Origin: a virus
IMG/VR virus record: IMGVR_UViG_3300026382_000009
Span: 45,195-109,194 of that record
Strand: one strand, 5' to 3'
Length of the DNA: 64,000 nt
Each line of letters begins with the position of its first letter. Position 1 is the first letter of the stretch. Positions 669 to 60,226 of the stretch are shown piece by piece. The position numbers and the translations under genes were made by a program. Under the pieces are notes generated by a model. That model searched no databases. It was not told the origin of the DNA and was given only the letters and a program-made list of their open reading frames with translations.

Positions 669-669
669 T

Positions 670-1029: not shown

Positions 1030-1030
1030 T

Positions 1031-1321
1031 TTACGCCTTTACATTTGATGAACATCCTAATGCACTTCCACCACAACTTATTGGATCACCTATACGAGAT
1101 ATAGGGATACCATTAGCTTTTACAGTCGGATTACCAACTGCTTGAACAGCCCCATGTGATTCTGGAATAGGACAACAACAATGTGGTGGATAAACATCTC
1201 CAATTCTAGCAACGGGAATATTATTAGCAAATACATTAGGACTTCCTGTAACAACAGGCCTTGGAGGCCAACAACCATGTCCTGTTCCTATATCACCTAA
1301 TCTATGAACAAATGCTCCCAT
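1031..1321 (-). CDS. PAAR-repeat spike tip protein (gp5.4-like)
   Basis: RLGDIGTGHGCWPP, GSPNVFANNIPVARIGD, PISRIGDPISCG. Confidence 0.92.
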   Translation of the reverse strand: MGAFVHRLGDIGTGHGCWPPRPVVTGSPNVFANNIPVARIGDVYPPHCCCPIPESHGAVQAVGNPTVKANGIPISRIGDPISCGGSALGCSSNVKA

Positions 1322-1328
1322 TTTAACC

Positions 1329-2093: not shown

Positions 2094-2147
2094 TTATAAA
2101 CCTTAATTTATTCATTAATGATTTAACAATAATCTAATAATATTAAT

Positions 2148-4100
2148 CTAATAACATTTAATATTTTTAGAACTGAAATAAGGAATATTTAAACTTATAT
2201 CTGTTATTTCAAAATTAAATGTTGGAGTAGATAATCCTATATCAAATGGTTTACAATTAGATGTATCTAACATGTTTATAATATTATTTACTGTATTTTC
2301 TGCACTTTCTTTTAAATTTTCAATAACTCTATCAACTTCTTGATGTATTATATCAGATATTTCTTGTTTTTTATTTTCAAAATATTCTTGAAATTTTTTA
2401 GATGCTGTTTCAGCAAATTGTTTAGCTTTATCTTTGTCTAATTTTTGAAAAACAGAACCATATAATGAATTAACCAAATAAGATTGATAACCTTTTATAT
2501 TGTTTTCATATGTATTTTCAAATTTTTCTTTCAATTCTTCCTTTATATGTTTTATTTTTTCATTTAAATCATTTAATGAATTACGTTTTCTTTTTAATTT
2601 GTCTATAAATGTTGTAACAGCGTTTATAGCTTTTTCGACTGTTTTAACAATTGATGCTATAAAACATAAAACAGATTTAATAGAACATATAATAGTATTT
2701 ATAACTGCTAAAATAGCTTCAAATGGTGTCACTAATAAATTTAAAAGACTTCCAATAGTTTTTCTTGGATTATTTATAAAAGAAATAACACCTACTATTG
2801 TTCCTAATCCTATAAGTAAATTTTGTATTTTTTCTTTACTTCCAAATAATAAATTATTTATATTATTTAATTTATTTTTAGCACTTTCAATAAATTTTTT
2901 TAAATCATTTTTGAAAGCTAAAATAATAGATGAAGTAATAGCACCAAACATAAGGATTTGTTTTTCTTTATTTTGTAGTGCTATTAATTTTGATTGAATT
3001 TCATTTGCATTATTTTTTAATTCATCTGCAATATTTTTCATTTTTCCATACGAACTTGATAAAGTTTTATAACTGTTATTTAATTTACTGTATTGTTCTT
3101 GTGTTATATCTTTGTTTTTTTCTATTTCTGATTTAATTGAATTAAGTGTGTTAGTTTCTATTTCTAACAATGAATTGAAGTCATCTAATTCTTTAGTTAA
3201 TTCTTCAGATTTCAATGTTTTAATATAAATAATAATTCTGTTTGTTTCTTGTTCGTCTAAATATAATAAACTTGATGATAATTCTGTTATATTGTTTACA
3301 GATTCTTGAAAAGAAGTATAATATTTATCTCTATCATATAATGTTGATGAGTATTTTCCAAATTTAGAAAATGTGTTTATAAATAAATTTGAATAAAAAT
3401 TTATTTTTTTATCCAATTTTGATAAATCTAATTGACTTTGTAATTTAAGAATTTCTTTTGTATATTCTTTTAATTCATTCGCTAAATTAAGTTTTGTATT
3501 TAAAAAATTGTAAAAAGTAGTTTTACTGTTAAAATAATTTTGGAGTAAATCTCTGTATTTTTCACTTTCTTTTGTTAGATAATAAAAATTTATTTCTATA
3601 TTTTTATTTTTTAAAAATTCCTCATATAATGTTTTTTCATCACTATCTGGTAAGTTTTTAACATATTCTTTAATCTCTTTTTTGTTTATGTTACATTTGT
3701 TATACAAATCAAAAGGATAATACAAATTTATTTTATCACATTTAAAATTTATTTCAGAATTAATATCTGTAAGTTTATAAAGATTTTCTATTGTATTGTA
3801 TTTTTGTAATGCAAGATAATCTGTATAATAATCATAAAAATATTTTAATGATTTTAATGTAAATATAAGTTCTTCATTTGTTGCTTTAGAGATAGCTTGA
3901 TTTAATAATGTATTCAAAAGCTCTTTATCTATCGAATAAGAATTAAAAAAATCATTTATTTCAGGTGTTAAATTATTGATAAGATAATCATTTTCATCTA
4001 TTATAGATGTATTTATAAAATAATCTAATGATTTCAATAATCCAGATAAACTTGTTCCTGTATGATATATATTATTTCCTAAATTATTCAAAATCATCAA
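2148..4100 (-). CDS. Hypothetical 650-aa helical/coiled-coil protein between the two gp5 halves
   Basis: Long ORF with coiled-coil character and hydrophobic/amphipathic segments; no recognised motif. Confidence 0.6.
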   Translation of the reverse strand: MMILNNLGNNIYHTGTSLSGLLKSLDYFINTSIIDENDYLINNLTPEINDFFNSYSIDKELLNTLLNQAISKATNEELIFTLKSLKYFYDYYTDYLALQKYNTIENLYKLTDINSEINFKCDKINLYYPFDLYNKCNINKKEIKEYVKNLPDSDEKTLYEEFLKNKNIEINFYYLTKESEKYRDLLQNYFNSKTTFYNFLNTKLNLANELKEYTKEILKLQSQLDLSKLDKKINFYSNLFINTFSKFGKYSSTLYDRDKYYTSFQESVNNITELSSSLLYLDEQETNRIIIYIKTLKSEELTKELDDFNSLLEIETNTLNSIKSEIEKNKDITQEQYSKLNNSYKTLSSSYGKMKNIADELKNNANEIQSKLIALQNKEKQILMFGAITSSIILAFKNDLKKFIESAKNKLNNINNLLFGSKEKIQNLLIGLGTIVGVISFINNPRKTIGSLLNLLVTPFEAILAVINTIICSIKSVLCFIASIVKTVEKAINAVTTFIDKLKRKRNSLNDLNEKIKHIKEELKEKFENTYENNIKGYQSYLVNSLYGSVFQKLDKDKAKQFAETASKKFQEYFENKKQEISDIIHQEVDRVIENLKESAENTVNNIINMLDTSNCKPFDIGLSTPTFNFEITDISLNIPYFSSKNIKCY

Positions 4101-29547: not shown

Positions 29548-32056
29548 TTAATTTTTCTATAACTTTTAAATAATCATCACTAATATAATAACTATTATAT
29601 TTGTATTTGTATCCAAGTTCTTTTAAAAAAGATTTTAATTCTTTATTCAATTCTTTAGGAACAAATCTTTGTTTTAGTTTTAAATTATCTTTGTAATACA
29701 GCATCTTTTTCATCAGTTTAATTTTTTCTAAACCTATTCCATTTTTTTCTAAAATACTAAGATAATTTACTAAATCTTCTTTTTTCATTAAAAATAATTT
29801 ATGATTTATCATTTTATTAAAATCTTTTTTATTTTTTAAAATTATTTTTAAAAGTTGAATTTTTTCATCTTCAGAACTAAAGGTCAAAAACTTTTCATAG
29901 TATTTTATCTTTTGTTCTTCATTGTATGTTAAATCATTATTTTTTAATCTATTAATTAAAAGTTCTATTTTTTGTTGTTCTTTTTCTTTAATTTGTCGTT
30001 TGATTTCTTTTAAATTTAATGTCGTTTTTTCTTCAACAATTTTTATAGATTGTGTATTAAATTGATGCTCAAGCAATTTCAAAAAACTTTTTTTATGATT
30101 AACTTCTAATAAATTCAAAAAAGTTTCAATTTCAAACATAAATTCACCAAAATTATTTATAATTTTGTTGCCAAATTCATCAAAAGAAAAATATATTGAT
30201 TCATCTAAAAAATATAAATATTCATTTTTTAAAATTTCTTTATCTATAATTTTAAATTTTTTTATATCTTTTACAAAAAAAATTATTTTTTCAGCGAATC
30301 TATTTCTTTTTAATTGCTGTAATGAAGAAATTACATCTATTGTTTGACTTTCATCTATATGATAATGTATTTTGACATTTGGACAATTTATTGAAATTCC
30401 AACAGTAATAGTTGGTGTATAAACCAATGCATCCCATGTAGCTTCTTGTGAAAACGTTTCAAATATTTTATTTTTTTCTTCTTCAGACGTGTCCCCATTT
30501 AAAAATACAACTTTTTTTCCTTTTTGTTTCAAAAGTTCACTTATCAAATATCCTGTATTTTTGTTTGATACAGAAATAGTAATTTTTTCTTTTTCATTCA
30601 AAATTTTTGAGATAATAGTATTTTTATCAGTAAATTGAATTAATTCAATATTATCTTTATATTCATTAAAAATATATTTCTTTTTTCTATTTTTGAAAAA
30701 ATCAGGTTCAATTTCTAAAAACGCATCAAGTAAAATGAGTTTAAATTTTTTATTTGTTAATATTTTATATAATTTCATTTTATTTAAAACTGATTTATCA
30801 GTTAAATTAGATAATAAATGAATAAGCAATGAAATATATTCATCAATTATTACAACATCAAAATTTTTGATATCATATTTCCATAAGCTGTCAAACTGCG
30901 TTACAAGATGTCCATTATTCTGATAATCATCGTAATAAATATTAATGTTATACTTTTTTGAAATATCTTCAGCTAAACTTCTTCTATTTGTTATGAATAA
31001 ACATCTTTTATTATTTTTTGTAAAATAATTAAGATATTTAGCAATCAAATTTGATTTTCCTGTTCCCATTGGTGATTTTATTTTTAAAACATCGAAATCT
31101 TCTATGATTTCTAAAGATACATATCTTTCATTTATAAAAATTGTATTTTTTTGCTTTAATTTCAATTTTATGGCATTTATTGATAATTTTTCTAGTTTTT
31201 TATCTAATTTTTCTTCATTTTTTCTATTTATAAATTCTTTTACAGATTTCAATTTAGAAATATCTTTATAAAAGTTTATTGATTTAGATGGATCAAAGTG
31301 ATGTAAAATAAAAGGATTATTTTTAAAAAGAAAATATCCTTTAGGTGTTTTTTCATTAGGATGTCTAAAAACTAACAAATCTCCTTTATCTTGAACAACA
31401 GAAAATCCAAGACCATTAAGATATTTTATACTCTCAAATAAAATATCTTCATATCCTTCATTTTTAATTATTTTCTTTTTAATTTTTGGGAGTTTTTTTA
31501 TTTCACCTTTGTGAAATATTACAAAATCATTATTGAGAGTTGGTGCTTGAAATGTTGCTTCTCTAATTACAGATAAATCTGTTTTTCCTAATCCTTTGAT
31601 TAAAAAATTTATATTTAAAAGAAATTGTTTCAAAGACTCTTCATTATTTGAACCTTCTACTAAAATTGCACCTTTTAAATTGTATTTTCCTTTTCCATAA
31701 CTTCTACTAGGTAAAACGAAAAAATAATAATTTTCTTTTTTAAGAATTTCAACAATTTTTTCTGAATCTTCTTTTGAAAAAACATCATCAATATCTAAAA
31801 CAATATATTGAACTTGTTTACAAAGATAATCTTTTAATTCTCTTTTTAATCTTTTTTTGATGACAGGTTCTTTGATATTATAACAACGATTTAAATGAAA
31901 ATGATTTATGAAATAATAAGGAAGATTTTCAAATGAAGTTTTAATTGTCCTAAATTCGAAAGTATTGTCACCATATGGAGAAATAGGAAATTTAGAAGTG
32001 CTTTTTGAATTAAAAATTGTAATTTTTATATTATTAATATTTTTATCCATTTTCAC
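29540..32056 (-). CDS. SF2 helicase of origin-binding (UL9-like) type with N-terminal primase-like region
   Basis: KSPMGTGKS, TNRRSLA, IIDEY, YTPTITVGIS, QQLKRNR; N-terminal VLDIDD. Confidence 0.7.
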   Translation of the reverse strand: MKMDKNINNIKITIFNSKSTSKFPISPYGDNTFEFRTIKTSFENLPYYFINHFHLNRCYNIKEPVIKKRLKRELKDYLCKQVQYIVLDIDDVFSKEDSEKIVEILKKENYYFFVLPSRSYGKGKYNLKGAILVEGSNNEESLKQFLLNINFLIKGLGKTDLSVIREATFQAPTLNNDFVIFHKGEIKKLPKIKKKIIKNEGYEDILFESIKYLNGLGFSVVQDKGDLLVFRHPNEKTPKGYFLFKNNPFILHHFDPSKSINFYKDISKLKSVKEFINRKNEEKLDKKLEKLSINAIKLKLKQKNTIFINERYVSLEIIEDFDVLKIKSPMGTGKSNLIAKYLNYFTKNNKRCLFITNRRSLAEDISKKYNINIYYDDYQNNGHLVTQFDSLWKYDIKNFDVVIIDEYISLLIHLLSNLTDKSVLNKMKLYKILTNKKFKLILLDAFLEIEPDFFKNRKKKYIFNEYKDNIELIQFTDKNTIISKILNEKEKITISVSNKNTGYLISELLKQKGKKVVFLNGDTSEEEKNKIFETFSQEATWDALVYTPTITVGISINCPNVKIHYHIDESQTIDVISSLQQLKRNRFAEKIIFFVKDIKKFKIIDKEILKNEYLYFLDESIYFSFDEFGNKIINNFGEFMFEIETFLNLLEVNHKKSFLKLLEHQFNTQSIKIVEEKTTLNLKEIKRQIKEKEQQKIELLINRLKNNDLTYNEEQKIKYYEKFLTFSSEDEKIQLLKIILKNKKDFNKMINHKLFLMKKEDLVNYLSILEKNGIGLEKIKLMKKMLYYKDNLKLKQRFVPKELNKELKSFLKELGYKYKYNSYYISDDYLKVIEKLIV

Positions 32057-47533: not shown

Positions 47534-48931
47534 TTATTTTATTCCTAAAATTGATTTCTCAATTTCAATACATTTTTCATACGAATCGGCTTCATCTTTA
47601 TCTTCTCTAATACATACAAAACTTGGATGTAAAAGAGCTTCTACTTTTCCATCTTTCCAAGATAATCCTCTACAATTAATTGTTGCAATTTTACCAATTA
47701 ACTTGTCTTTATGTTTAGTAATATAATTCATGTCTTCTTCTGTTAAACCTCCAGCTTTAACTTTTATTTTACCATCAGAACTTTCAGCTATAACTCTGTT
47801 AATAAAATTTTCATATTTTGTTCCTGGTGTGCCATATTCAAAACCAATAATTTTAAAATCAACATCAAAATTTATTTTAATTTTTATTTGATAATCAGGT
47901 TTTTTATTTATAAATTTCCCATATTTACTTTTAACAACAGTTCCTTCTCCACCTCTTTGAAAAATTTCTTTAAAATGTTCTATAACTTCTTCTTTTATTT
48001 TTACAGGTCTAGTAGAAATTTCTAAAATATTATCTGTTTGCCACAAACATTCTTTTAAATTTGAATATCTTTTGTAATAAGGAATTTCACAATATCCTTT
48101 GCTCCAATCTTTGAAAGGAATTATATCCCAAGCAACAATATAAATATCTTTTAAAAATTCAGATGGTTTTTTTCCATATTTTTCAATAAATGCTTTAATA
48201 TCTTTTTCTTTTAATTTTCCTTCTTTCTTTTTAGACAAAAGTGTTTTTATTGAATTAATTAATCCATTAGCTTTATATCTATCAAAATTTTTAACAAGAA
48301 TCTCACCAGTAATAACAAATTCATCATAAACAGGTGAAAAATAATTGTGTTTAAAAGCCCTTTCTAAATGTAAATCTTTTCCATTTCTCGCAAATGTTCT
48401 TAATTCTCCTGTTTCACAATTATAATAGAGGTTACAAAACATTCCATCAAGCTTTTCTTGTGACCAAACTTCACCTTCTTCAAGAAGTTTTTCAAGTTTT
48501 TTCATATTAAAAGGAATTGCTCCCATATATGAAGTAATTGGTATAAAATTTTCAAATACTTTGTTTATTAATTTAGCATTAATACCTATTTTAAAATCTT
48601 TTTGAAGAATTCCATCAAATACCCAAGCATCGTGTTCATCAAGCTTTTGATATAAATATTCAACTTCATTTCTTGCAGCATTTCCTGTAATTTTTCTTAA
48701 TCTTAAATTATCTAAAGTATCAAATATAATATGACTTGAATGCTCTAAAGTAATTTCACCTTTATTTGGAAGTTTATCATATTTTTTAACATAGTATTGA
48801 TAAAATGGATTATAAGCGTAAAATAAAACTTTTTTAAGAAGATCATTATCTTTATGTTGTTTAAGTATCTCTTGTTTTTTGTTAGTAGAAGAAGTTTCTT
48901 TTATTTGTTGTAGAATTTCATAAACTTTCAT
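47534..48931 (-). CDS. ATP-dependent DNA ligase (gp30-like)
   Basis: QEKLDG, FARNGK, ITGEIL, AWDII, EGTVVK, KIK, HPSFVCIREDK. Confidence 0.93.
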   Translation of the reverse strand: MKVYEILQQIKETSSTNKKQEILKQHKDNDLLKKVLFYAYNPFYQYYVKKYDKLPNKGEITLEHSSHIIFDTLDNLRLRKITGNAARNEVEYLYQKLDEHDAWVFDGILQKDFKIGINAKLINKVFENFIPITSYMGAIPFNMKKLEKLLEEGEVWSQEKLDGMFCNLYYNCETGELRTFARNGKDLHLERAFKHNYFSPVYDEFVITGEILVKNFDRYKANGLINSIKTLLSKKKEGKLKEKDIKAFIEKYGKKPSEFLKDIYIVAWDIIPFKDWSKGYCEIPYYKRYSNLKECLWQTDNILEISTRPVKIKEEVIEHFKEIFQRGGEGTVVKSKYGKFINKKPDYQIKIKINFDVDFKIIGFEYGTPGTKYENFINRVIAESSDGKIKVKAGGLTEEDMNYITKHKDKLIGKIATINCRGLSWKDGKVEALLHPSFVCIREDKDEADSYEKCIEIEKSILGIK

Positions 48932-49069: not shown

Positions 49070-49654
49070 CTATTTTAAAAAATTTTTATAAATTTCTTCT
49101 AATGAAATAGGTGTAAAATTTATATTTTCAACTGAAACATTAAAATGAGGTATTTCACATTCTTGACAAGGATTTGCACTATGTGTATGACCATGAATTA
49201 ATAAATCAATATTACCAAGCTTTTTCTTAAATTCTCTAAGAGAAGTGTTTGTATCCAAATATTTTTCACACAATGGATAATGACAAATACCGATCTTCTT
49301 TTTATTAACATTCAAAATAAAATATGCGTTAGTGCTTTGAAACCCCACATCTTTGTACCATCCATTAGATTTATGGTCATGGTTTCCATAAATTAAAATC
49401 TTATTTCCATTCATATTATCTAAAATTCTTTTGGCTAAAAATTTTTCTGAAAGCACAAATTCATATTTTCTTTTATATTGACCAAATCCTACAAAAATAT
49501 CTCCAACAAAAAACACAGTGTCTTCTGGTTTAACAACACTATTATATCTTTTTATCATTTCTTCTATGTATGAATCTTGAAATTGCTTTCTTTTAGGTTC
49601 ATATTCAAATATGTTTTGATGAAAGAAATGATAATCACTTACAAACCAAATCAT
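49070..49654 (-). CDS. Calcineurin-like metallophosphoesterase
   Basis: SDYHF, VGD, GNHD, CHYP, HGHTH, NVSVE. Confidence 0.92.
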   Translation of the reverse strand: MIWFVSDYHFFHQNIFEYEPKRKQFQDSYIEEMIKRYNSVVKPEDTVFFVGDIFVGFGQYKRKYEFVLSEKFLAKRILDNMNGNKILIYGNHDHKSNGWYKDVGFQSTNAYFILNVNKKKIGICHYPLCEKYLDTNTSLREFKKKLGNIDLLIHGHTHSANPCQECEIPHFNVSVENINFTPISLEEIYKNFLK

Positions 49655-49922: not shown

Positions 49923-50153
49923 CTATAAATAATTTATATAAATATTTGGAATACTATCAAGTCTTTCAACTAATTTTACTGGAATATTATTTATTTTAGC
50001 TACTTTTTCACATGTGTTAAATTTTAATTCTGATTTCATCTTTTTAATCCAATTAATCACACTTAACGAGTAATCTCCATCTTTATTTTTAATTTTAACT
50101 AATTCACAATAAATCCCTTGTATTTCTTTAATCATTTCTGGATTTATTTTCAT
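49923..50153 (-). CDS. Hypothetical protein (start likely ATG 50153)
   Basis: ORF coupled to the dCMP deaminase stop. Confidence 0.45.
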   Translation of the reverse strand: MKINPEMIKEIQGIYCELVKIKNKDGDYSLSVINWIKKMKSELKFNTCEKVAKINNIPVKLVERLDSIPNIYINYL

Positions 50154-50659
50154 TTTACGTCTTTTATTTGTTCTACAGTAATTCCACATTTTTTTAAAAA
50201 CTCAATTCCATCAGTGTTTCTATATTCTTCATAATAAAAAACTCTTTTTATTCCTGACTGAACAATTAATTTAGCACATTCAGGACAAGGACTCAAAGTA
50301 ACATACATATCACATTCATTAGTCGATATTCCAGCTTTTGCTGCAAAAGCAATAGCATTCATTTCAGCGTGAACTGTGAAAGGTGATGTTTTTAAAATTT
50401 CTTTTGGATCATCAAATTGTTTTTTACATTTACGACAAAAATATAAAAAATCATCAAATTTTCCAATTTCTTTAGAACCACAAAAAGGACATAATTTTTC
50501 TATTTCTTCACATACATTTTCATATCCTGATACTGTTCCATTATAACCACAAGAAATAATCCTATTATCTCTAGTAAGAACTGCACCAACTTTATTTCTT
50601 TTACAATAAGATAACTTAGCAGTTTCCAAAGCAACTCTCATAAAATATTTTTCTTTCAT
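50150..50659 (-). CDS. cd: dCMP deaminase with inserted Zn-ribbon
   Basis: KVGAVL, GYNG, HAEMNAI, SPCPECAK; insert CPFC...CRKC. Confidence 0.93.
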   Translation of the reverse strand: MKEKYFMRVALETAKLSYCKRNKVGAVLTRDNRIISCGYNGTVSGYENVCEEIEKLCPFCGSKEIGKFDDFLYFCRKCKKQFDDPKEILKTSPFTVHAEMNAIAFAAKAGISTNECDMYVTLSPCPECAKLIVQSGIKRVFYYEEYRNTDGIEFLKKCGITVEQIKDVK

Positions 50660-50971: not shown

Positions 50972-51682
50972 TTAATCTTCTAAATTTACAGAATAAAGAT
51001 ATTTATGTTCATCAGGAATAGCCAAATATAAATTATAAACCAATATTCTAAAATCCCAAAAAACATCTTTTTGTGATCTTAATTCTAATAAATGTTGTAA
51101 TTCTTGTCCATTAATTGTATAAACACCTCTTGTTTTATATCCTTCAGGAAGAAGTATTTTGATTCTATCTAAATTTTTTCCCTTATAATGTGCTACAATT
51201 TTTCTTGTATTTTCTAAATTTTGTAATGCGTATTTATCAATAACTTCATCTCCAGAAAAAACAAAATATTTTGAAGCTCTTTGAATATCATCGATAAATT
51301 CTTTTTCTTGTGCTAATTCTTTCAATGTATATCGTGTTGATTTAACTGTCGGTGCAATTCCAACACAATGACGTGACAATTCTTGTAATGTTGCTCTACT
51401 AAAATTCATAATCCTGAATGTATATGTTAGATGCCTTAAAATAGATTTATGTTTAAATTTATTACCTATCCTTTCTATAAATTCTTTATCTTTTTCACCT
51501 GTTATATTATTTTTTATATCACTATCTGATTTACTATGACTTTGCCATGCTTCTCTTCCACCTTCAGCACATACCCATAATGGTGTATACCAAAGAACTT
51601 CAGATTTTTGTGGATTTAATTCTTCAAAATCGTAATTCCATTGTCTTAATTCTTTTATTTTATTTTTAATTTTTTCGATCAT
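50972..51682 (-). CDS. thyX: Flavin-dependent thymidylate synthase
   Basis: HKSILRH, SRATLQELSRH...VKSTRY, LLPEG, LELR. Confidence 0.9.
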   Translation of the reverse strand: MIEKIKNKIKELRQWNYDFEELNPQKSEVLWYTPLWVCAEGGREAWQSHSKSDSDIKNNITGEKDKEFIERIGNKFKHKSILRHLTYTFRIMNFSRATLQELSRHCVGIAPTVKSTRYTLKELAQEKEFIDDIQRASKYFVFSGDEVIDKYALQNLENTRKIVAHYKGKNLDRIKILLPEGYKTRGVYTINGQELQHLLELRSQKDVFWDFRILVYNLYLAIPDEHKYLYSVNLED

Positions 51683-52163
51683 TTAAAACTCCTATTTCAA
51701 TTAAAATTTTTTTAACTTTATCTTTTAATTTGTTAATATCTTTTTCTGTATTATCTAAAATAATTTCTTTATCAAAATCAATTTTTTCAATAAATTCTTC
51801 TTTTATATTTTTATCAATAACATGTATAACAATTACATTATCAACTTCTTTAATTCTCTCATATTCAACTTTAAATCTCAAATCTGTTATTAAATTAATT
51901 TTTGTAACATTCATTTGTTTCTTCACAAAATCAGCCCAAATATAAGGATACCCTTTTTTTATTTCTTCTGAAAACCATATCAAATCTTTTCGATATTTTT
52001 CTTTGTTTTTTTCAAAATCATCTAAAGATATACCTTTTATTTTACAAAATATTTCTTTAGGTTTTTTAGCAAAAGAAAATCTATCAACTTTTATATATTT
52101 TTCAATGACATCTGCAACAGTATCTTTTCCAACTCTTTTTTCACCATATAAAAAAATTGTCAT
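51666..52163 (-). CDS. dNMP kinase (T4 gp1-like)
   Basis: GEKRVGKDTVA, SFAKKPK, ITDLRFKVE. Confidence 0.8.
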   Translation of the reverse strand: MTIFLYGEKRVGKDTVADVIEKYIKVDRFSFAKKPKEIFCKIKGISLDDFEKNKEKYRKDLIWFSEEIKKGYPYIWADFVKKQMNVTKINLITDLRFKVEYERIKEVDNVIVIHVIDKNIKEEFIEKIDFDKEIILDNTEKDINKLKDKVKKILIEIGVLNDRKN

Positions 52164-52747
52164 TTTAATTCCTTTAAAACTTTTTTATACTCTTCTGGTG
52201 TGTTGAAAAATAAAGTTTTTTCTTTTACAATATTAACATGAAAATTATTTTTAACAGCTAAATCTAAAAATTCTTTTTCTTTTTCTTTTAATTCTTTAAT
52301 TATAAAAATTGAATTATCTTGATAACCTTCTTTTTGACCTTTAGTCCAATCTATTAATTTATTTTCTTTAAAAACCAAAGAAACATATGGATTTTTTCTT
52401 TTTGTTACAGTCAAACAATTATTATCAAATTTTTTATATGTTTCTAAAATATCTTTTATATTTTGTTCATTAAAAAATACGTCACTCCAACAAATACAAA
52501 TAGGTTCTTTAATTTTCTTTTTTAATTCAAAAACATCTGCTCCTGATCCATTCCCAAAATCACCTGTTATAGTTTTAGAAAATGTTTTAATTTTCGGATA
52601 ATTATTTAAAATATTATCTGTTGTAACTATATAAATATTATCAAAAAATTTTTTAAAAATTTTTTCATTATATTCAAACGTTTCTAATATTTTTGGCTTA
52701 TAGGAAAATCTTGATGATTTTCCTGCTGCCATAATATATAAATTCAT
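52160..52747 (-). CDS. NTP transferase (GT-A nucleotidyltransferase, MobA/GlmU-like)
   Basis: IMAAGKSSRF..KPK, WSDV, FFNTPEEY. Confidence 0.82.
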   Translation of the reverse strand: MNLYIMAAGKSSRFSYKPKILETFEYNEKIFKKFFDNIYIVTTDNILNNYPKIKTFSKTITGDFGNGSGADVFELKKKIKEPICICWSDVFFNEQNIKDILETYKKFDNNCLTVTKRKNPYVSLVFKENKLIDWTKGQKEGYQDNSIFIIKELKEKEKEFLDLAVKNNFHVNIVKEKTLFFNTPEEYKKVLKELK

Positions 52748-52750
52748 TGT

Positions 52751-54412
52751 TTATCCTTTTCTTAAAAGATATTTTAAAAATACATTAGTATCATAAACAT
52801 TTTTTACATGAAGTGATGGTAATTTTTTAATCATATCTTTATCATTTCCATTTATTTCATCACCAATATAAAACACTTTATTTTTATCTATATCAATTAA
52901 TTCAAGCAACTTTTTAAAATTATTATATTTATTATTGTCTTTTTTCATTATATCAATAGTTGAAATACCTGCTTTAATAACTTGTAAATCAGGTAGTTTA
53001 ATTAACAAATATTTATGTAGAACTTCTCTATATTCATAATCTAAAAATCTTAATGAAATAATACAATTATTTCTATTTTCAATTTTTGAAACATTGAATG
53101 ATATATCTCTCAAAACATCAAAAATCTCATTTAATTCATTTGTTTTTAATTCAAAATTTTTATAAATAATTTTATTATCTTTATAAATAGTACTTCCATA
53201 ATTTGTCGCATAATAATTACATTTTAATTCTTTAGGAATTTCAGAAAGTTTTTTACCTGTAAAAAGTATTATTTTGTATTTATCATAAAGTTTATTTATC
53301 AAATTATTATTTTCTAATGAAACATCTACATCTTTTATATTTCTAGAAAAAATAGTATCATCAAAATCAAATATCAATGTATTAAAATCATCAAAATTAA
53401 AATAACTGTCAAAAATTGTAAATGCTAACTCATCAGGATCATGTTTATCTTTATTTTTTATTTTTTCATTGATAACAACAGGAATATCTAACTTTGAATA
53501 AATTTTTGTATGAGATATAATTTTTGAAACATCATAATTTAGACTTTTTAAAATAATTTTAAGTTCTTCTTCTAAAGAATACCCTATCATATCTTTATCA
53601 CGTGTAATATTGACCACAAGATATTTTTCTTTTTCTTTTATTGCTTCTTTAAATCCTTTAGTTTTATATGTTGGTATTAGTGAAGAAAATTGTGTTCCTG
53701 AACTAAATATTATTAAATCACTTTTTTTAATTACTTTTTTAGCTCTTTCAGACAAAATTGGAATTTTTTCGTTTCCATATTTATCAATAAAAAATATGTC
53801 AGTAATTCTGTTGTTAGGATTATTCCAATCAACTATTTCAGCTTCATCATATATATTAACTGATTTCTCAGTTTTTGCGCATAAAAATAATGATTCATCA
53901 GAATTAACAATAACATTTTTAGGTAAATTAAGATATTCTGCCATAATATCAGCCGCTTTTTGTAACGACTTATTATTAATATAAGCAAGACCACCATATA
54001 CAATATTAGCAATAGAAAAATCTACATATCTTATTTTATGTGAAAGTTTTTGTTTAAAATACACTTCAACAGCTTGTTTAATTTCATCAGGAAAATCTGA
54101 AACTAATTCTTTTATTTTATATTCAGCATCTTTATAAAACGTGTATCTCTTTGATAAAACATTAAAAATTTTTTCTGATAAATCTGTTTTAATTTTATCT
54201 CTATATAATTCATAATCTAAAAATTGTTGTTTTCTGACATCAGATGGACCGAGTATTTCACCATTAAAAACTTTTCTAACAATACCAGTAGAAAGACCAT
54301 TATCATACGCATTTACTAAAGTATACATATTATTAATATCTAAATATTTAGAAAGTCCTTTTTTTAATTGTTTACTTCCTGTTCCTCCTGAAATTATTAA
54401 CACTTTCATCAA
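52751..54412 (-). CDS. CofD/YvcK (UPF0052)-like domain fused to a HAD IIB phosphatase/phosphosugar mutase
   Basis: ISGGTGS, NAYDNGLSTG, GPSDVR, SSGTQFSSLIP; then FDFDDT, FTGK, GISTIDI, IGDEINGND. Confidence 0.82.
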   Translation of the reverse strand: MMKVLIISGGTGSKQLKKGLSKYLDINNMYTLVNAYDNGLSTGIVRKVFNGEILGPSDVRKQQFLDYELYRDKIKTDLSEKIFNVLSKRYTFYKDAEYKIKELVSDFPDEIKQAVEVYFKQKLSHKIRYVDFSIANIVYGGLAYINNKSLQKAADIMAEYLNLPKNVIVNSDESLFLCAKTEKSVNIYDEAEIVDWNNPNNRITDIFFIDKYGNEKIPILSERAKKVIKKSDLIIFSSGTQFSSLIPTYKTKGFKEAIKEKEKYLVVNITRDKDMIGYSLEEELKIILKSLNYDVSKIISHTKIYSKLDIPVVINEKIKNKDKHDPDELAFTIFDSYFNFDDFNTLIFDFDDTIFSRNIKDVDVSLENNNLINKLYDKYKIILFTGKKLSEIPKELKCNYYATNYGSTIYKDNKIIYKNFELKTNELNEIFDVLRDISFNVSKIENRNNCIISLRFLDYEYREVLHKYLLIKLPDLQVIKAGISTIDIMKKDNNKYNNFKKLLELIDIDKNKVFYIGDEINGNDKDMIKKLPSLHVKNVYDTNVFLKYLLRKG

Positions 54413-54465
54413 TTTTCCTTTATTTTAAATATTCATTTAAAATTATATTATATTTTTTAAAAATG

Positions 54466-55005
54466 CTAACTTAAAATTTTTAAAAGTTGTTTTTTGAAAA
54501 TTTCTTTTTTATTAAATCTTCTTACATACGATGGATGATAAACTTTAAAAGAATTAAATTTTTCAAAAACATCATTGTATTCTTTATAATTTCCTAAAAA
54601 TACAAACCTATCAAAATCATATTCATTTTTTAGAAAATTCAATTCATCTAAAAGAATATTAGTCCATTCTTTTAATGATAAATTAGATTCATCTTTTATT
54701 AAATTAGTAAAATAAGGAAATAATTTTATTTCTTTTAAAACATCTAAAAGTGTTTTTGATGAAGGACCAAATAACCAAGCAGATTCACATTTATATAAAT
54801 GTTTAAATTTTGTTCCAGGTTTGTAACCTATAAAAACAATTTTTGAAAATAAATTTCCTCTAGGAGGAGTATAGAATTTTTTAAAATTATTAAAATACTT
54901 TTGATGTTTCTTTAATCCAAAAATTCCTGGATATTCTATATCATCTATATTTGGTTTTATTTCTTTAATTTTTAAAATATTTTTACAGATACTATCCCAA
55001 TTCAT
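54466..55005 (-). CDS. Uracil-DNA glycosylase superfamily-like protein
   Basis: RGN...IVFIGYKPG, FGPSSKTL, YFTNLIK, VFLG, VYHPSY (family-4-like motifs, divergent motif A). Confidence 0.7.
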   Translation of the reverse strand: MNWDSICKNILKIKEIKPNIDDIEYPGIFGLKKHQKYFNNFKKFYTPPRGNLFSKIVFIGYKPGTKFKHLYKCESAWLFGPSSKTLLDVLKEIKLFPYFTNLIKDESNLSLKEWTNILLDELNFLKNEYDFDRFVFLGNYKEYNDVFEKFNSFKVYHPSYVRRFNKKEIFKKQLLKILS

Positions 55006-56093
55006 ATTCTTTCTTTTATTATTTGATATAATTCTTTTGCATATTCATCAACATTAATTTTAGTATTCTCATATTGTAAATCACAAATTTTTTTACATTT
55101 CTCTTCATCATTTTTCAACATTTTCATTCTTTTTTCAATATCATCTTTACTTTTAACATATAACAATTTTCTCAAAGTTTCATCTGTATAAATTTTCATT
55201 TGTGGATCTAATTCTTTATCAACAAATGTTATGTTGTTTGCTAAAATTGACTCATATACTCTTTGATTTATATTATTACCATTATATTTTTTATCACCTA
55301 TGATTACTGTCGCTTTAAATTCATTCATCTTGTTTAAAAATTCTGAATATTCAACTGGTTTTCCAAATAGTGGTGGTCTACCATGTATTTCTTCTTTGTA
55401 TTTTTTAAATTTTTCTAATTTTATAGGACCAAAAACTTCAACAATTAAATCATTATATCCAAATAAAAACTGAAGAATTTTTTCTTCTCTTTTTCCACCT
55501 CTTAATGTTCCACCATATCCTAAGTCTTTTATTTTTTTAGACCAATCCCAAGGAAGTCTTTCATTTAATAAAGGAAATTTATAAAAAGGAAAATGGACAT
55601 ATTCTTTAACTTTCACTTCTTTTTCAATTTGTTTTCTAAAAGGATTAATATTATAAGGTTGATGAATATAAATAATTTCTTTGTCTATATAAATATCCTC
55701 TTTTTTATATTTTTTACTCCATGGTTTCTTTTCAATCGATTTCCAAATTTGTTTCAAATGTAATTCAGGGTCACAATACATATAAAATATAGGTCCATTA
55801 AATTTATTAATCATAATATAATTCATTATTTGAGCTTTATCTTCAGCACCTCCAAAAAAGTTAACATTACCATTAATAACTACAAGTGCATCAAAATTAT
55901 CTAAATTATTGTCTTCTAAAATATTGTGTCCTATTGCAAAATCAATTTTTGGATCTTTTTTTAAAATTTTAGTAAAATAATGAACTTCAAAATTTTTAGA
56001 CAAAAGCTTCATAATTGATAGTGCTTCTCCTGAACCGCCTGATGTTCCTTTATTTACAATTCTAGCTCCTAATTTTAAAACAGCTATTTTCAT
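55002..56093 (-). CDS. DNA beta-glucosyltransferase-like (T4 BGT family)
   Basis: MKIAVL, VINGNVNFFGG, YGGTLRGGKRE, IIGDKKYN, RVYE, VDKELD align by recall with T4 BGT motifs. Confidence 0.88.
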   Translation of the reverse strand: MKIAVLKLGARIVNKGTSGGSGEALSIMKLLSKNFEVHYFTKILKKDPKIDFAIGHNILEDNNLDNFDALVVINGNVNFFGGAEDKAQIMNYIMINKFNGPIFYMYCDPELHLKQIWKSIEKKPWSKKYKKEDIYIDKEIIYIHQPYNINPFRKQIEKEVKVKEYVHFPFYKFPLLNERLPWDWSKKIKDLGYGGTLRGGKREEKILQFLFGYNDLIVEVFGPIKLEKFKKYKEEIHGRPPLFGKPVEYSEFLNKMNEFKATVIIGDKKYNGNNINQRVYESILANNITFVDKELDPQMKIYTDETLRKLLYVKSKDDIEKRMKMLKNDEEKCKKICDLQYENTKINVDEYAKELYQIIKERI

Positions 56094-56497
56094 TTGTTTT
56101 CCTTAAATTCTTTTAATTCTTTTAGTTTTTTATCAAGTTCTAAATTAATTATTTTTAAAGATTTATCTAAAATTGGTGATAATTTTTCATCTATTTTAAT
56201 CTTTTTACCAACATTGTATCCTAAATAAGAATAAAACAAATATTTTCTAGGACTTAAAACAATAAGTAAAAGACCAATAATAGTCAATATAACACTCACT
56301 TTTATATATTTTTTGAGATTTGATTTTATATCTTTTATTCTTTTTATTTCTTCTTCTTTTTTCAAGCAACATTCATCTAAAACCAATTCATAATAAAAAG
56401 ATAAAATAGATAATACAAGTAGTCCACCAAAAAACAAAACATTTTCCAATTTTCCTATCATATCATAAAGATAAAGATAAACAAAAATTTTTTCCAT
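56090..56497 (-). CDS. Membrane protein
   Basis: Two TM helices. Confidence 0.6.
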   Translation of the reverse strand: MEKIFVYLYLYDMIGKLENVLFFGGLLVLSILSFYYELVLDECCLKKEEEIKRIKDIKSNLKKYIKVSVILTIIGLLLIVLSPRKYLFYSYLGYNVGKKIKIDEKLSPILDKSLKIINLELDKKLKELKEFKENK

Positions 56498-56542
56498 CTT
56501 AACTTCCTTTTCATGTTTTGTATAACCACCACATCATATTTA

Positions 56543-57310
56543 TTAAAAAACGTAAATATATTCATTTTCATTTATAAATCTTTCAATGTATTTGAAATGT
56601 CTTTCATAAACATGTAAAGAGCTCGCTGTCCAGATAATAGGTCCTTTTTTTAATTCCGGGTATGTCTTTTTTAGTTCATCAAAAACTTTATTTTGGACAT
56701 ACAAATCCCAATAAAAATCGGAAGAATACCCAAACACAATATCATTACTGCGCATTACATAATGACTAATTAACACATTATCTCTAATAAAAAATTGATT
56801 ATACATTGTGCAAATAAAATCTGACATACCATTTTTATTGTATTCATAATGCATAGAAGGTCTATTGTAAATCATAATAGCTCTTCTACTATCCGGATTT
56901 CGTTTTAATTCTCTTATACAATTTTTGTATTGATCAAAATTTTCTTTACTAAAAATAACCCAACCATAATTAGAATTTATAAAACCATCTTTATCTGCAA
57001 CTTGCTGCCAAATTAACGGAACTTTTCCTGGAATATCATAAACATTTAATGATTGACTTTCATACCATTGTATTTCTCTTTGTGCATAATCTAAATTTGT
57101 CTCTCTAAGAATATACGGTTCATCAACTATAAATGTTGCTCCAATAATTTCAATTAATTTTTGTCCTGTCTTATCAATAACAAATTCTTTATTTTTATAT
57201 TTTTGAATTATTTCATTTCTTATATCTTTTATTTTTTTATAAAAATTAGTTTTATCTGTCCAATTTGACATTCTTTCATTTATTTCTTTGTTTATATCTA
57301 TTACACACAT
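56543..57310 (-). CDS. dCMP hydroxymethylase (T4 gp42-like)
   Basis: DKTG.K.IEIIGA.F, REIQWY, INSNYGW, DSRRAIMIY.RPSM, GMSDFICT, MRSND.VFG..SD (Asp at the dCMP-specificity position), SLHVYERHF. Confidence 0.92.
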   Translation of the reverse strand: MCVIDINKEINERMSNWTDKTNFYKKIKDIRNEIIQKYKNKEFVIDKTGQKLIEIIGATFIVDEPYILRETNLDYAQREIQWYESQSLNVYDIPGKVPLIWQQVADKDGFINSNYGWVIFSKENFDQYKNCIRELKRNPDSRRAIMIYNRPSMHYEYNKNGMSDFICTMYNQFFIRDNVLISHYVMRSNDIVFGYSSDFYWDLYVQNKVFDELKKTYPELKKGPIIWTASSLHVYERHFKYIERFINENEYIYVF

Positions 57311-57313
57311 TTT

Positions 57314-57817
57314 TCATCCTTTATATTTTTTAATAATATCTTTATATCTCGGATCAGTTTCTTTTACAAAATTACCTTCAGGAGTTAAAAAACCTTTCCT
57401 ATCTTTTATTTCATTATAAGCAACTTCTAATGCATAATCAGAATCTATTCCTAAATATCTAGAATATCCTACTAAATAAATATATGATTTTTTAATTAAA
57501 TCTAATGCTGATTTTGTATCTTCTTTAATAATCATATCACCAATATTGCAAATAGTTTCTGTCAACAAATCTAAGTCATAAAATTCATTAGATTTTTCAA
57601 ATTCAATTCCACCTAACATTTCACTCAAATTAATCAAAACAACTTGAACATCACCTATAGCGTCCACTAATTTATCATTATCTTTTAATCTTTTAGCTTC
57701 AAATATTTCACTAAATTCGCTCATTAATTTTGCAAATTGAGTCAATGGTTTACCGTTATCAATAATTCCTCTATCTTTACTCCATTGTATAACTTTTTGC
57801 TTAAGTTCTTTTTTCAC
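57314..57817 (-). CDS. MazG-like NTP pyrophosphohydrolase (probable dCTPase; start GTG 57817)
   Basis: QWSKDRGI, KLMSEFSE, DAIGDVQVVL, AYNEIKDRKG; AAAGGAG SD and TTTACA-N16-TATAAT upstream. Confidence 0.8.
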   Translation of the reverse strand: MKKELKQKVIQWSKDRGIIDNGKPLTQFAKLMSEFSEIFEAKRLKDNDKLVDAIGDVQVVLINLSEMLGGIEFEKSNEFYDLDLLTETICNIGDMIIKEDTKSALDLIKKSYIYLVGYSRYLGIDSDYALEVAYNEIKDRKGFLTPEGNFVKETDPRYKDIIKKYKG

Positions 57818-57905
57818 GTTATCTCCTTTATCAAAATATTTTTCATAAATAATTATATTAAATTTCACAAATTTGTAAATCAAAATAGACAAAAATATTT
57901 TTTGT

Positions 57906-58367
57906 TTAAAAAACTTCACATTGACAAAAATGATTAAAATAATAACCTCCATAATTTGACTCTTTTATATTTTCAATAAATATGTCAGTTCTAACTTTGT
58001 ATTTAAAGTTAATATCACCATTAGGAAATATTTCACATAATAAAACAAAATCAATTAAATTAGAATTTTGTTTCACGTATTTCATATCTTGTCTAATTGG
58101 AAACCATTTGTGTCCATTCACTCTTGCAGTTTTGACTTCATATTTTGTATTAAAACAATCAATTAAATCATATCTCCAATCAAAACTTTTCTTGAAACCA
58201 AAATTTTTAATTAAAAAATATTCTGCTGCTATTCCATTAAATGCATCTTTATAAATTTGTTGAGATGTTCTTCCACTAGTATTGTTTGTTTGGATTATTT
58301 TGTTAACTTCAAAATTTACAAAATTTAAAAAATCTTTATCTTTACAATTAATATTTCCTATAATCAT
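57906..58367 (-). CDS. denB: Endonuclease IV (DenB)-like PD-(D/E)XK nuclease
   Basis: GIAAEYFL, YDL, YEVKT...KW, ESNYGGYYF resemble T4 DenB motifs (AEFFV, WDVL, EVKTH, KSNYNGWYL) as recalled. Confidence 0.7.
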   Translation of the reverse strand: MIIGNINCKDKDFLNFVNFEVNKIIQTNNTSGRTSQQIYKDAFNGIAAEYFLIKNFGFKKSFDWRYDLIDCFNTKYEVKTARVNGHKWFPIRQDMKYVKQNSNLIDFVLLCEIFPNGDINFKYKVRTDIFIENIKESNYGGYYFNHFCQCEVF

Positions 58368-58888
58368 TTTAACACCTTATCTAGAAAATATTTTACAATA
58401 TCAAATACATCATCTTCATTTTTGTCTTCTATATTTATAAGAAATTTACTTTTTATGTTAGATAATTCATATGCCTTTTCAAAAAGATTAATTTCTTTTT
58501 CTTTTAATTTCAAATCAGTAGTAAATGACTGTCCATCATCACGTTGTATTAAATTTTTAGGATTATCAATAAAAATAAATAAAATACTATCTTTTAAAAA
58601 AATTTTTTCAAATTCTAGAACTTTTTCTATTTCTTTTTTTGTATAATTTCTATAAATTGGTCCATAAACCAACTCACCTATATGTAATCTATTAGAAATA
58701 ATTGGATAAATTAAATCTAGCTCTGATATTCTTATATATTCTTCTAATGCTAATTCAGGATTATTTATACCATAATAACTACAGTGTGTTTTTATTAAAG
58801 GCTCTTTATACTTTTTATAATACCATTTTTGTATTTTTTTAATTTGCGTATCTTTGCCAACATTATCAGGACCTTCAATTATTATCAT
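58364..58888 (-). CDS. Thymidylate-kinase-like nucleotide kinase (start likely ATG 58888)
   Basis: IIIEGPDNVGKDT, NRLHIGELVYGPIYR, RDDG. Confidence 0.8.
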   Translation of the reverse strand: MIIIEGPDNVGKDTQIKKIQKWYYKKYKEPLIKTHCSYYGINNPELALEEYIRISELDLIYPIISNRLHIGELVYGPIYRNYTKKEIEKVLEFEKIFLKDSILFIFIDNPKNLIQRDDGQSFTTDLKLKEKEINLFEKAYELSNIKSKFLINIEDKNEDDVFDIVKYFLDKVLK

Positions 58889-58933
58889 AATTCCTCCTTT
58901 ATGCAATTATAATATAACAATATTAATTTTATA

Positions 58934-59176: not shown

Positions 59177-60226
59177 TTAATTATGAAAGAAAAGACATTG
59201 TGTTGTATCTTTCATATATTCAAAATAAATTCTATTAAATCCTTCAGTATACAAAGGAAGTTCAAATCTTTTTGCAAAATCTATTAAAATATTTTCTGGA
59301 ATAAATTTTCCATCAATTTCACTTCTTTCTTTATTTCTTTTGAGAATTTCATCTAAAGATGATAACATGACAACTGCTTTTACATTATAATCATCAAGTT
59401 GAGATAACCATCTTCTTCTTGATTTCCAACTAATATTTGTCATATCTATAACAAAATCTTTATTTGATTTTTTAAGTTTATTAAATTTTTGTAAAAGAAT
59501 TTTATTAATTTCTTTTTGATCCTCTGAGCTTAATTTTTTCCAAATATCTGTATATGTATCACCATATCCTTTCTTTTTTCCATATTCTAAAAGAATATCA
59601 TCTCTACTTAAAACTTCTAAGTCTTTAAAATTCTTTTTTATATAAGTCGATTTTCCAGATCCTGGAAGTCCTATCATAATATAACAATTTTTATCTAATA
59701 TTGTATTACAAATTTTATTAAATCCATATTTTTCTTTTTCTTTATATTGAAAATCTTTAAAAGAAATATTTCCTTTGGCATCATAAGATGAAAATTCATA
59801 AAGTTTTTCATATAAATCATAATGTCCATTGACAAAATATTTTTTAATTTGTTTGTCTGATTTTCTCCAAAATATTCCATGATAATTTGTTATGTAAAGA
59901 ATTTCAATAGCATTCAAAAAAGATACAGTATCTTTATAAACTAAATTTATTAAAAAATCAATAGACATCAAAGTAGAAATTCCTTCATGTCCTCTAAATA
60001 CTATTTTACCATTTTCTAGATGATTTTTTGCAAGAGGTTTTCCAATATCATGAAGAAGTGCAGCAATTTGAAGATTCTTTGAAGCATTATTTAAGCGAGC
60101 TTGATTAAATACAAGCATAGTATGAGTCCAAACATCCCCTTCAAGATGATATAAATCACCCTGATGAGAAGTAGATTTTAACAAAGTTTCATAAGTTTTC
60201 TTAAAATCTTTAAATATTCTTTCCAT
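59177..60226 (-). CDS. HD-domain phosphohydrolase fused to a polynucleotide-kinase-like P-loop
   Basis: HLEGDVWTHT, LLHDIGKP, GHEGIS; GLPGSGKST, SRDDI, IDMTN, RNKER. Confidence 0.85.
   Translation of the reverse strand: MERIFKDFKKTYETLLKSTSHQGDLYHLEGDVWTHTMLVFNQARLNNASKNLQIAALLHDIGKPLAKNHLENGKIVFRGHEGISTLMSIDFLINLVYKDTVSFLNAIEILYITNYHGIFWRKSDKQIKKYFVNGHYDLYEKLYEFSSYDAKGNISFKDFQYKEKEKYGFNKICNTILDKNCYIMIGLPGSGKSTYIKKNFKDLEVLSRDDILLEYGKKKGYGDTYTDIWKKLSSEDQKEINKILLQKFNKLKKSNKDFVIDMTNISWKSRRRWLSQLDDYNVKAVVMLSSLDEILKRNKERSEIDGKFIPENILIDFAKRFELPLYTEGFNRIYFEYMKDTTQCLFFHN

Follow-up and report, generated by a model that had tools for sequence, protein, structure and literature searches.

Bacteriophage T4 replaces the cytosine of its DNA with 5-hydroxymethylcytosine (hmC) and glucosylates the modified base, drawing UDP-glucose from the host without donor genes of its own. 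Hypermodified cytosines decide whether phage DNA is cut by restriction enzymes, type IV systems and CRISPR nucleases, and are therefore relevant to phage therapy and to cloning. Phage-encoded pathways for the sugar donor have been shown only recently, for arabinose and galactofuranose on 5-hydroxycytosine (PMC13326640). Here we analyse a window of 64,000 nucleotides, the right-hand 64 kb of a 109,194-bp virus record with direct terminal repeats and a GC content of ~22% (IMGVR_UViG_3300026382_000009). In this window a cluster of T4-like hmC genes contains, downstream of a gene for a BGT-family (beta-glucosyltransferase) enzyme, a two-gene cassette encoding a fusion of a YvcK/CofD-family domain with a phosphomannomutase (PMM)-like HAD domain, and a 195-aa nucleotidyltransferase. 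We propose, tentatively, that the BGT-like enzyme receives its donor, an NDP-hexose, from the cassette, in which case the phage would supply its own activated sugar for glycosylated hmC.

The hmC part of the cluster is of the T4 kind. It shares with the T4 pathway the diagnostic residues of gp42 (dCMP hydroxymethylase), the catalytic and UDP-binding residues of BGT, a gp1-type kinase, a dCMP deaminase and, in the form of MazG, an analogue of the dCTPase. In contrast with T4, the BGT belongs to a separate clade, whose members usually precede the fusion and the nucleotidyltransferase, no alpha-glucosyltransferase (alpha-GT) was found, and ThyX takes the place of ThyA.

A second comparison is offered by RB69 and DLP3, which use a thymidylate synthase (TS) homolog to make 5-hydroxycytosine rather than hmC (2026; PMC13326640). 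These phages, which carry arabinosyl-5-hydroxycytosine, and RL38J1, which carries the hexosyl form, also cluster a TS homolog, a thymidylate kinase (TMPK)-like protein, DNA glycosyltransferases and NDP-sugar genes (PMC13326640), and their TMPK-like ‘nucleotide kinase' lies at an analogous position in the cluster (PMC13326640, Table 1). These three phages provide the precedent for phages that encode donor synthesis next to their DNA glycosyltransferases (PMC13326640). The first-pass annotation of the window had drawn an analogy with RB69 arabinosylation, which needs revision with respect to the base, as RB69 contains arabinosyl-5-hydroxycytosine and not arabinosyl-hmC (PMC13326640). The TS homologs of RB69, DLP3 and RL38J1 have the D169N substitution and yield 5-hydroxy-dCMP, whereas the window enzyme keeps D169. 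Their sugar genes (arabinose-5-phosphate isomerase, a kinase-nucleotidyltransferase fusion, an HAD phosphatase and UDP-Galp mutase; PMC13326640) and their GT4-like transferases are unrelated to the cassette and BGT described here. PMC13326640 makes no mention of a CofD or YvcK protein, and a literature search for CofD, YvcK, UPF0052 or PMM-like enzymes linked to phage DNA modification found nothing relevant.

A two-gene cassette linked to BGT and gp42

The eleven minus-strand open reading frames (ORFs) of the cluster, which run from 58906 to 50972 (Table 1), are tightly packed, with short gaps or overlaps, in an operon-like arrangement. Ten of the eleven gene calls of the first-pass annotation hold, the exception being a ‘DenB-like' ORF considered below. 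The cluster is real and the degree of clustering is far beyond chance, because dozens of divergent phages share this neighbourhood; near-identical DNA was not found among cultured phages.

In IMG/VR the fusion is encoded at 67 loci, which fall into at least 12 clusters at 50% identity and range from 22 to 52% GC. BGT is located directly upstream on the same strand in 41 of these loci, the nucleotidyltransferase is detectable as the next gene after the fusion in 25, and a gp42 homolog lies within 10 kb in 27. Where a gp42-like gene is found beside the cassette, BGT is always present. A scan that started from BGT recovered the cassette in 44 of 67 loci. The survey for which the first-pass annotation had called thus shows that the fusion and the nucleotidyltransferase do co-occur with bgt and gp42 in other genomes, the opposite of the lack of co-occurrence that it had named as grounds for refutation. 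Among cultured or deposited phages the fusion is present in two records only, those of the Ralstonia jumbo phage RsoM2USA and the uncultured phage LR756500 (462 kb). Both have a BGT homolog (44-46% identity), a TS homolog and a nucleotidyltransferase close to the fusion, and in both the order BGT, fusion, nucleotidyltransferase is preserved. In RsoM2USA (MG752970.1) the arbitrary ends of the linear record cut through the cassette, leaving BGT and the fusion at 83-3011 and the nucleotidyltransferase at 343047-343802. All three genes are annotated ‘hypothetical protein' in the deposited record, and the genome paper, in which the word ‘hydroxymethyl' does not occur, enters ORF2 as a beta glucosyl transferase in the category ‘signal transduction'. 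As a cultured phage that carries the complete module, RsoM2USA makes the proposals discussed below directly testable.

The two cassette genes are also joined physically. Approximately 25 fusion homologs are single proteins of 770-900 aa, and two of the four that were checked against Pfam display the order CofD, (HAD), NTP_transf_3. Judged by this domain order, such proteins link the fusion to the nucleotidyltransferase in Rosetta-stone fashion.

The fusion itself (AlphaFold model pLDDT 95.4) matches PF01933 with 78.6 bits at residues 4-320 (cut-off 30) and the HAD profile Hydrolase_3 with 32.7 bits after residue 345. The motifs FDFDDT, GISTIDI and GDEINGND are found at residues 348, 482 and 517, respectively. 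Profiles, Foldseek and motif positions agree with the first-pass description of a CofD/YvcK-HAD fusion with PMM-like HAD motifs. The best match of the N-terminal domain is to YvcK/GlmR (UPF0052), with which it shares the GGTG, DxGxSTG and SGT..S..P motifs, and Foldseek ranks the YvcK family structures 2o2z, 2ppv, 2hzb and 2q7x ahead of CofD (3c3d). As the domain falls below both NCBIfam cut-offs (62.2 versus 196 bits for the YvcK profile TIGR01826, and 18.4 versus 257 bits for the CofD profile TIGR01819), its sequence places it in a separate branch of PF01933. It differs further from YvcK/GlmR in its fusion to a PMM-like domain, in its pairing with a nucleotidyltransferase and in its genomic setting, which is phage DNA-modification and bacterial polysaccharide loci and not the yvcJ-glmR-yvcL operon. 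The pairing of a nucleotidyltransferase with a PF01933 protein is reminiscent of CofC and CofD in F420 synthesis, and the CofD fold is indeed recovered (3c3d, E 7e-11). A true CofC/CofD pair was rejected, however, as the profile scores are too low and the nucleotidyltransferase has a sugar-1-phosphate nucleotidyltransferase fold, closer to such enzymes than to CofC. F420 genes are also lacking. Many charged residues of the CofD-like domain are invariant (D37, R46, D58, K61, R89, E190, D272 and D274), and in their conservation they look like an active site.

With respect to the C-terminal domain, Foldseek puts the alpha-phosphoglucomutase (alpha-PGM) of Lactococcus (4bnd) and eukaryote-type PMMs before phosphatases. 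When a profile of the HAD domain only was compared with the PDB, the PMMs and alpha-PGM returned E values of 1e-16 to 5e-13 and the phosphatases 1e-5 or worse. The domain shares with its best profile and fold matches in HAD-IIB (2amy, 7myv and 4bnd) the DxDDT and GDExxxGND motifs and equivalents of the cap residues, such that R447, R462 and the Thr of GxxTIDI align with PMM2 R123, R141 and S179. It differs in that identity is only ~18%, PMM2 R134 aligns with a gap, and the domain is here fused to a YvcK/CofD-family partner. The HAD core (D349, D351, K495, D518 and D524) is invariant or nearly so. These profile and fold matches indicate a PMM/alpha-PGM-like domain, for which we predict a mutase function. 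Cobamide and di-inositol-phosphate synthesis follow a pattern of nucleotidyltransferase, phosphodiester-forming transferase and phosphatase. A plain sugar phosphatase of this pattern was considered for the HAD domain and is less likely, the matches to PMM and alpha-PGM being much stronger.

The 195-aa protein displays the nucleotidyltransferase signature G-x-G-(S/T)-R-x(n)-P-K at residues 7-19 (AAGKSSRFSYKPK), in which G9, R13 and K19 are invariant, and AAGxxSR..PK is evident when the protein is aligned with its relatives from 23 loci. The protein has no match in Pfam; its relatives match PF12804. The top Foldseek matches of its model are GDP-mannose pyrophosphorylase, ST0452, KdsB, RmlA, GlmU and LicC, with TM scores of 0.7-0.8 to VTC1, ST0452, RmlA and GlmU. 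Signature and fold model together uphold the earlier call of an NTP transferase, and the model points to a fold of the sugar-1-phosphate nucleotidyltransferase type. A mutase followed by a nucleotidyltransferase is the standard route from hexose-6-phosphate to NDP-hexose, and the two predicted activities of the cassette would together make NDP-hexose from hexose-6-phosphate.

The predicted modified base and its transferase

Replacement of cytosine by hmC and its subsequent glycosylation, as read from the window in the first pass, are supported by the matches of the gp42 and BGT homologs (Table 1). The gp42 homolog has the catalytic Cys of the thymidylate synthase fold at residue 167 (T4 C148), and its D164, C167, D190 and D198 align with T4 D145, C148, D171 and D179. 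In E. coli ThyA numbering, L143D/E and N177D mark TS homologs that use dCMP and do not methylate, whereas D169N marks those that make 5-hydroxy-dCMP (PMC13326640). In the window enzyme the N177 position is occupied by Asp and the L143 position by an acidic residue, likewise Asp, and D190 (in MRSND) is an Asp at the D169 position, where the 5-hydroxy enzymes have Asn. L143D, the Cys, D169 and N177D are retained in all 29 cassette-linked TS homologs examined. Since the residue at the D169 position is Asp and not Asn, the gp42 homolog is predicted to be a 5-hydroxymethyl-dCMP synthase, and not a 5-hydroxy-dCMP synthase. Two other bases were considered. We rejected 5-hydroxycytosine on the grounds that D169N is absent from the window enzyme and from all the linked TS homologs. 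We also rejected 5-hydroxymethyluracil as a replacement for thymine, given the Asp at the specificity position and the retention by the phage of ThyX, a dCMP deaminase and a TMPK-like kinase.

The BGT homolog (PHROG 7922, E 1e-58) aligns with residues 1-329 of 1bgt, its whole length, and retains T4 E22, R191, R195, Y261, R269, E272 and the catalytic base D100, the residue mutated in PDB 1nzd. Among 27 cassette-linked BGT homologs, D100, R191, R195, R269 and E272 are conserved at ≥90%. In a quick maximum-likelihood tree the cassette-linked BGTs form their own clade (support 96), apart from the clade of T4, CC31, Acinetobacter and Enterococcus phages (support 100). The presence of the cassette requires 6 changes on this tree, compared with a mean of 18.8 in 500 shuffles, none of which was as low. 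Only six positions are fixed differently between the cassette-linked and T4 clades, and none of these is within the two stretches that hold the UDP-binding residues. For this reason an altered donor pocket was discounted, and nothing in the sequences indicates a donor unlike UDP-glucose, although one is conceivable. The non-glucose sugar suggested as one possibility in the first-pass annotation thus finds no support, as the comparison with the donor pocket of T4 BGT reveals that the catalytic and UDP-binding residues are all kept. The rest of the phage record yielded no alpha-GT, no GT1 and no GT2 that was convincing, a result that favours BGT as the enzyme served by the cassette. A sub-threshold GT2 match (16 bits, E 5e-4) is located at 31610-31804 on the minus strand (76804-76998 of the record), inside an 839-aa ORF that is probably not a glycosyltransferase, yet is the sole other hint of one in the phage record.

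Candidate products of the cassette

By reference to the T4 pathway, the MazG-like enzyme would remove dCTP, the gp42 homolog would convert dCMP to 5hm-dCMP, and the gp1-type and TMPK-like kinases would take 5hm-dCMP towards the triphosphate, while dCMP deaminase and ThyX would keep up the supply of dTTP. After replication the BGT-family enzyme, judged by its conserved residues, would move hexose from UDP-hexose to hmC in DNA. Within the cassette, fold and profile matches suggest that the PMM/alpha-PGM-like domain would convert hexose-6-phosphate to hexose-1-phosphate, from which the nucleotidyltransferase, with NTP, would produce NDP-hexose. In the least certain step the YvcK/CofD-family domain would bind this sugar nucleotide, as YvcK/GlmR binds UDP-sugars, and would then control the fused mutase or help in nucleotide transfer. 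GlmR binds UDP-GlcNAc and regulates GlmS in this manner (PMC6171935, PMC7525490). It is a UDP-sugar-binding protein whose Listeria counterpart has been reported with uridyltransferase activity (PMC7525490, PMC10128056), and by analogy the phage domain may assist nucleotidyl transfer (cf. PMC10128056). Synthesis of the sugar donor would, on this scheme, be independent of the host UDP-glucose pool. The product would most likely be glucosyl-hmC or a close hexosyl analogue, the sugar probably being glucose-like because the BGT donor residues are unchanged. If this proposal is correct, the cassette represents a further widespread donor route, on 5-hydroxymethylcytosine, which is centred on a YvcK/CofD-family enzyme of unassigned chemistry, bacterial examples included.

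The cassette is not specific to hmC phages. The full fusion is held by 37 bacterial loci, mostly in metagenome-assembled genomes (MAGs) of Clostridia, and at each of these it adjoins an NTP_transf_3 gene, while BGT or gp42 is beside the fusion in none of the 37. The neighbours of the bacterial cassette are those of polysaccharide loci, and include GT2 (17 loci) and GT8 (7 loci) hexosyltransferases, Wzx-type flippases and epimerases. In viruses, 26 of the 67 loci lack BGT within 10 kb. One of these is in a 205-kb virus that is 92% complete (IMGVR_UViG_3300032167_000020), which has no TS homolog or BGT anywhere, and which belongs with ~25 loci to a BGT-less lineage that is partly binned as giant-virus MAGs and in which the cassette is often one protein of 770-830 aa. 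Conserved beside the cassette at 11 of the 26 BGT-less loci is a gene for a 230-aa protein of unassigned family, for which a protein atlas gives a weak lead to RgpF-type glycosyltransferases. As these bacterial and viral loci are without hmC genes, the constant partner of the cassette is a glycosyltransferase and not hmC.

The cassette is portable, and its occurrence beside GT2 and GT8 enzymes in bacteria is what would be expected if it supplied a soluble donor to any transferase that adjoins it. Moreover, 42 residues are conserved across the phage and bacterial fusion homologs, and a comparison of BGT-linked phage fusions with bacterial fusions revealed no fixed difference, which suggests that the two settings share their small-molecule chemistry. 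Knowledge of the product would also give a function to the cassette in many polysaccharide loci of Clostridia. Several observations weigh against this proposal. T4-type phages glucosylate hmC without such a cassette, and about one-third of the BGT clade to which the window enzyme belongs has no cassette within 7 kb. It should be emphasized, in addition, that the proposal gives the YvcK/CofD-family domain no necessary catalytic job despite its many invariant charged residues. Finally, there are stand-alone CofD-like relatives, without HAD or nucleotidyltransferase, that adjoin GT2 genes in polysaccharide loci, and there are CofD-GT2 fusion proteins, both of which raise the possibility that the domain itself has transferase activity in the assembly of glycans.

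It could thus be argued that the CofD-like domain acts on the glucosylated base. BGT would use host UDP-glucose, and the CofD-like domain would transfer hexose-1-phosphate from the NDP-hexose made by the cassette to a glucose hydroxyl with release of NMP, in a reaction analogous to those of CofD in the synthesis of F420 and of LicD, which uses CDP-choline. The product, hexose-phospho-glucosyl-hmC, would be an undescribed, negatively charged hypermodified base. We consider this possible, though somewhat unlikely. It has the merit that all three cassette activities receive a reaction typical of their family, and it accounts for the catalytic appearance of the conserved charged residues and for the stand-alone relatives and GT2 fusions, which would be glycan-modifying transferases. 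The T4-identical donor residues of BGT are also accommodated, as the enzyme may simply use UDP-glucose, as is the finding that a gp42-like gene with the cassette always comes with BGT. In addition, the top folds for the nucleotidyltransferase are GDP-mannose pyrophosphorylases, and the donor of CofD is GDP-linked. In contrast, both sequence and fold place the domain closer to YvcK/GlmR than to true CofD, and the YvcK branch is without known phosphodiester-forming activity. The absence of fixed differences between phage and bacterial fusions is likewise awkward, as one active site would have to face both DNA-borne and glycan-borne acceptors. That the fusions are acidic, with no sign of DNA binding, is a weak argument against such a role. 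The median pI is 5.6 in phages and 5.5 in bacteria, so that acidity does not vary with setting, and even the BGT homologs are only about neutral; pI was accordingly set aside as uninformative on DNA binding. If the phosphodiester did prove to be the product, the base would be common to many jumbo and mid-sized phages, including RsoM2USA, and would share its chemistry with the decoration of bacterial surface polysaccharides, the enzyme being a new kind of DNA-modifying phosphotransferase.

It is improbable, in our view, that the cassette serves no role in DNA modification and functions instead in auxiliary sugar metabolism, in a GlmR-like effect on envelope precursors or in the glycosylation of another target, its adjacency to bgt reflecting only a shared early region of nucleotide and sugar metabolism. 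The bacterial polysaccharide loci without BGT or gp42 and the 26 BGT-less viral loci, the 92%-complete virus among them, are consistent with such a function, as is the action of YvcK/GlmR proteins in cell-envelope precursor metabolism (PMC6171935, PMC10128056). Shared location alone, however, does not readily account for an order in which the fusion immediately follows BGT on the same strand in at least 12 deeply divergent lineages of 22-52% GC, for the scarcity of changes in cassette presence on the BGT tree (6 versus a shuffled mean of 18.8), or for a glycosyltransferase neighbour wherever the cassette occurs.

Least probable of all is that the DNA contains plain beta-glucosyl-hmC made from host UDP-glucose, the cassette being a non-essential booster or regulator for times when UDP-glucose is scarce and introducing no new chemistry; the T4-like donor residues of BGT, the match of the PMM/alpha-PGM-like domain and nucleotidyltransferase to the needs of a phosphoglucomutase/UDP-glucose pyrophosphorylase bypass, and the nature of YvcK/GlmR as a UDP-sugar-binding regulator (PMC7525490) are consistent with it, but the cassette is strongly conserved beside BGT, bacterial polysaccharide loci use it despite housekeeping UDP-glucose, which suggests a dedicated and possibly unusual product, and the idea overlaps with donor synthesis by the cassette, from which it differs only in the degree of phage dependence.

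Other genes of the cluster

The remaining genes are listed with the principal ones in Table 1. The MazG, gp1-like kinase and ThyX assignments of the first pass were all confirmed by profile matches, and the membrane protein by its two hydrophobic segments.

Table 1 Features of the cluster in order of transcription, with positions in the 64-kb window
Feature	Position	Strand	Evidence
P-loop nucleotide kinase, thymidylate-kinase-like, 180 aa (weak call)	58364..58906	-	PHROG 761 E 5.4e-12; PF02223 E 6e-4 (below cut-off)
153-aa ORF, family unassigned (earlier ‘DenB-like')	57906..58367	-	no family match
MazG-like NTP pyrophosphohydrolase, candidate dCTPase	57314..57952	-	PHROG 1992 E 4.7e-37
Predicted dCMP hydroxymethylase, T4 gp42 type	56543..57310	-	E 1.2e-75 to PDB 1b49/1b5e; PF00303 67.4 bits
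Small membrane protein, 135 aa	56090..56497	-	PHROG 3878 (unknown function) E 2e-13; two hydrophobic segments
BGT-family DNA glycosyltransferase (GT-B), 363 aa	55002..56093	-	PF09198 88.7 bits (cut-off 27); E 2.4e-37 to 1bgt
UDG-superfamily-like protein (weak call)	54466..55005	-	PF03167 E 8.6e-6, 26.3 bits versus cut-off 24.3
Fusion, 553 aa: YvcK/CofD-family (~1-335) and PMM/alpha-PGM-like HAD-IIB (~345-553)	52751..54412	-	PF01933, PF08282
Nucleotidyltransferase, GT-A-like, sugar-1-phosphate type, 195 aa	52160..52747	-	AAGKSSRF..PK signature; AlphaFold pLDDT 95.7
dNMP kinase, T4 gp1 type	51666..52163	-	PHROG 139 E 9.6e-26; PF21448 E 7e-8
ThyX flavin-dependent thymidylate synthase	50972..51682	-	TIGR02170 E 5.8e-21
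dCMP deaminase, zinc-ribbon-like insert (outside the range of the first-pass annotation, same strand)	50150..50659	-	PF00383 E 8.5e-27

The dTMP-kinase-like and uracil-DNA glycosylase (UDG)-like calls proved positive but weak. A homolog of the TMPK-like kinase is present in 29 of the 67 viral cassette loci. Homologs of the UDG-like protein, for which sequence comparison found no relative in the PDB, adjoin BGT in a minority of loci. The label ‘DenB-like' should be dropped, as the 153-aa ORF has no match in Pfam, PHROGs or NCBIfam, nor by tblastn in 50,697 phage records that include T4, and a homolog was not found in the other cassette loci. A YDLID...YEVKT stretch in this ORF resembles the PD-(D/E)xK nuclease motif (D..ExK-like); if the protein is a nuclease, it might degrade host DNA that contains dC. 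The MazG ORF and the ORF before it overlap by 47 nt, and the true start codon of MazG is probably downstream of the annotated start, because the match to PHROG 1992 begins only at residue 47. The dCMP deaminase completes the T4-style pyrimidine set, feeding dUMP to ThyX.

In 18 other phage loci (e.g. L016-L032) a guanylate-kinase-like gene (PF00625, TIGR03263; e.g. L067:12645-13307) follows the nucleotidyltransferase. This gene may be a non-homologous replacement of the gp1-type dNMP kinase, or it could be an enzyme for the recycling of GMP, should GMP be released in the CofD-like step. It was not taken as evidence of such recycling, because the same slot in the window holds a gp1-type dNMP kinase and a dNMP-kinase role explains the gene equally well.

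A scan of the AT-rich DNA of the cluster for promoters and terminators returned sites at a level not above that of shuffled sequence. The gene directly upstream of the cluster, at 59177-60226 on the minus strand, encodes a protein of 349 aa in which an HD domain at the N-terminus is combined with an AAA_33 P-loop kinase domain at the C-terminus; the product could act in repair, in the manner of a polynucleotide kinase/phosphatase, or elsewhere in nucleotide metabolism. Downstream, past ThyX, the minus strand encodes a calcineurin-like phosphoesterase (49070-49654) and an ATP-dependent DNA ligase (47534-48931).

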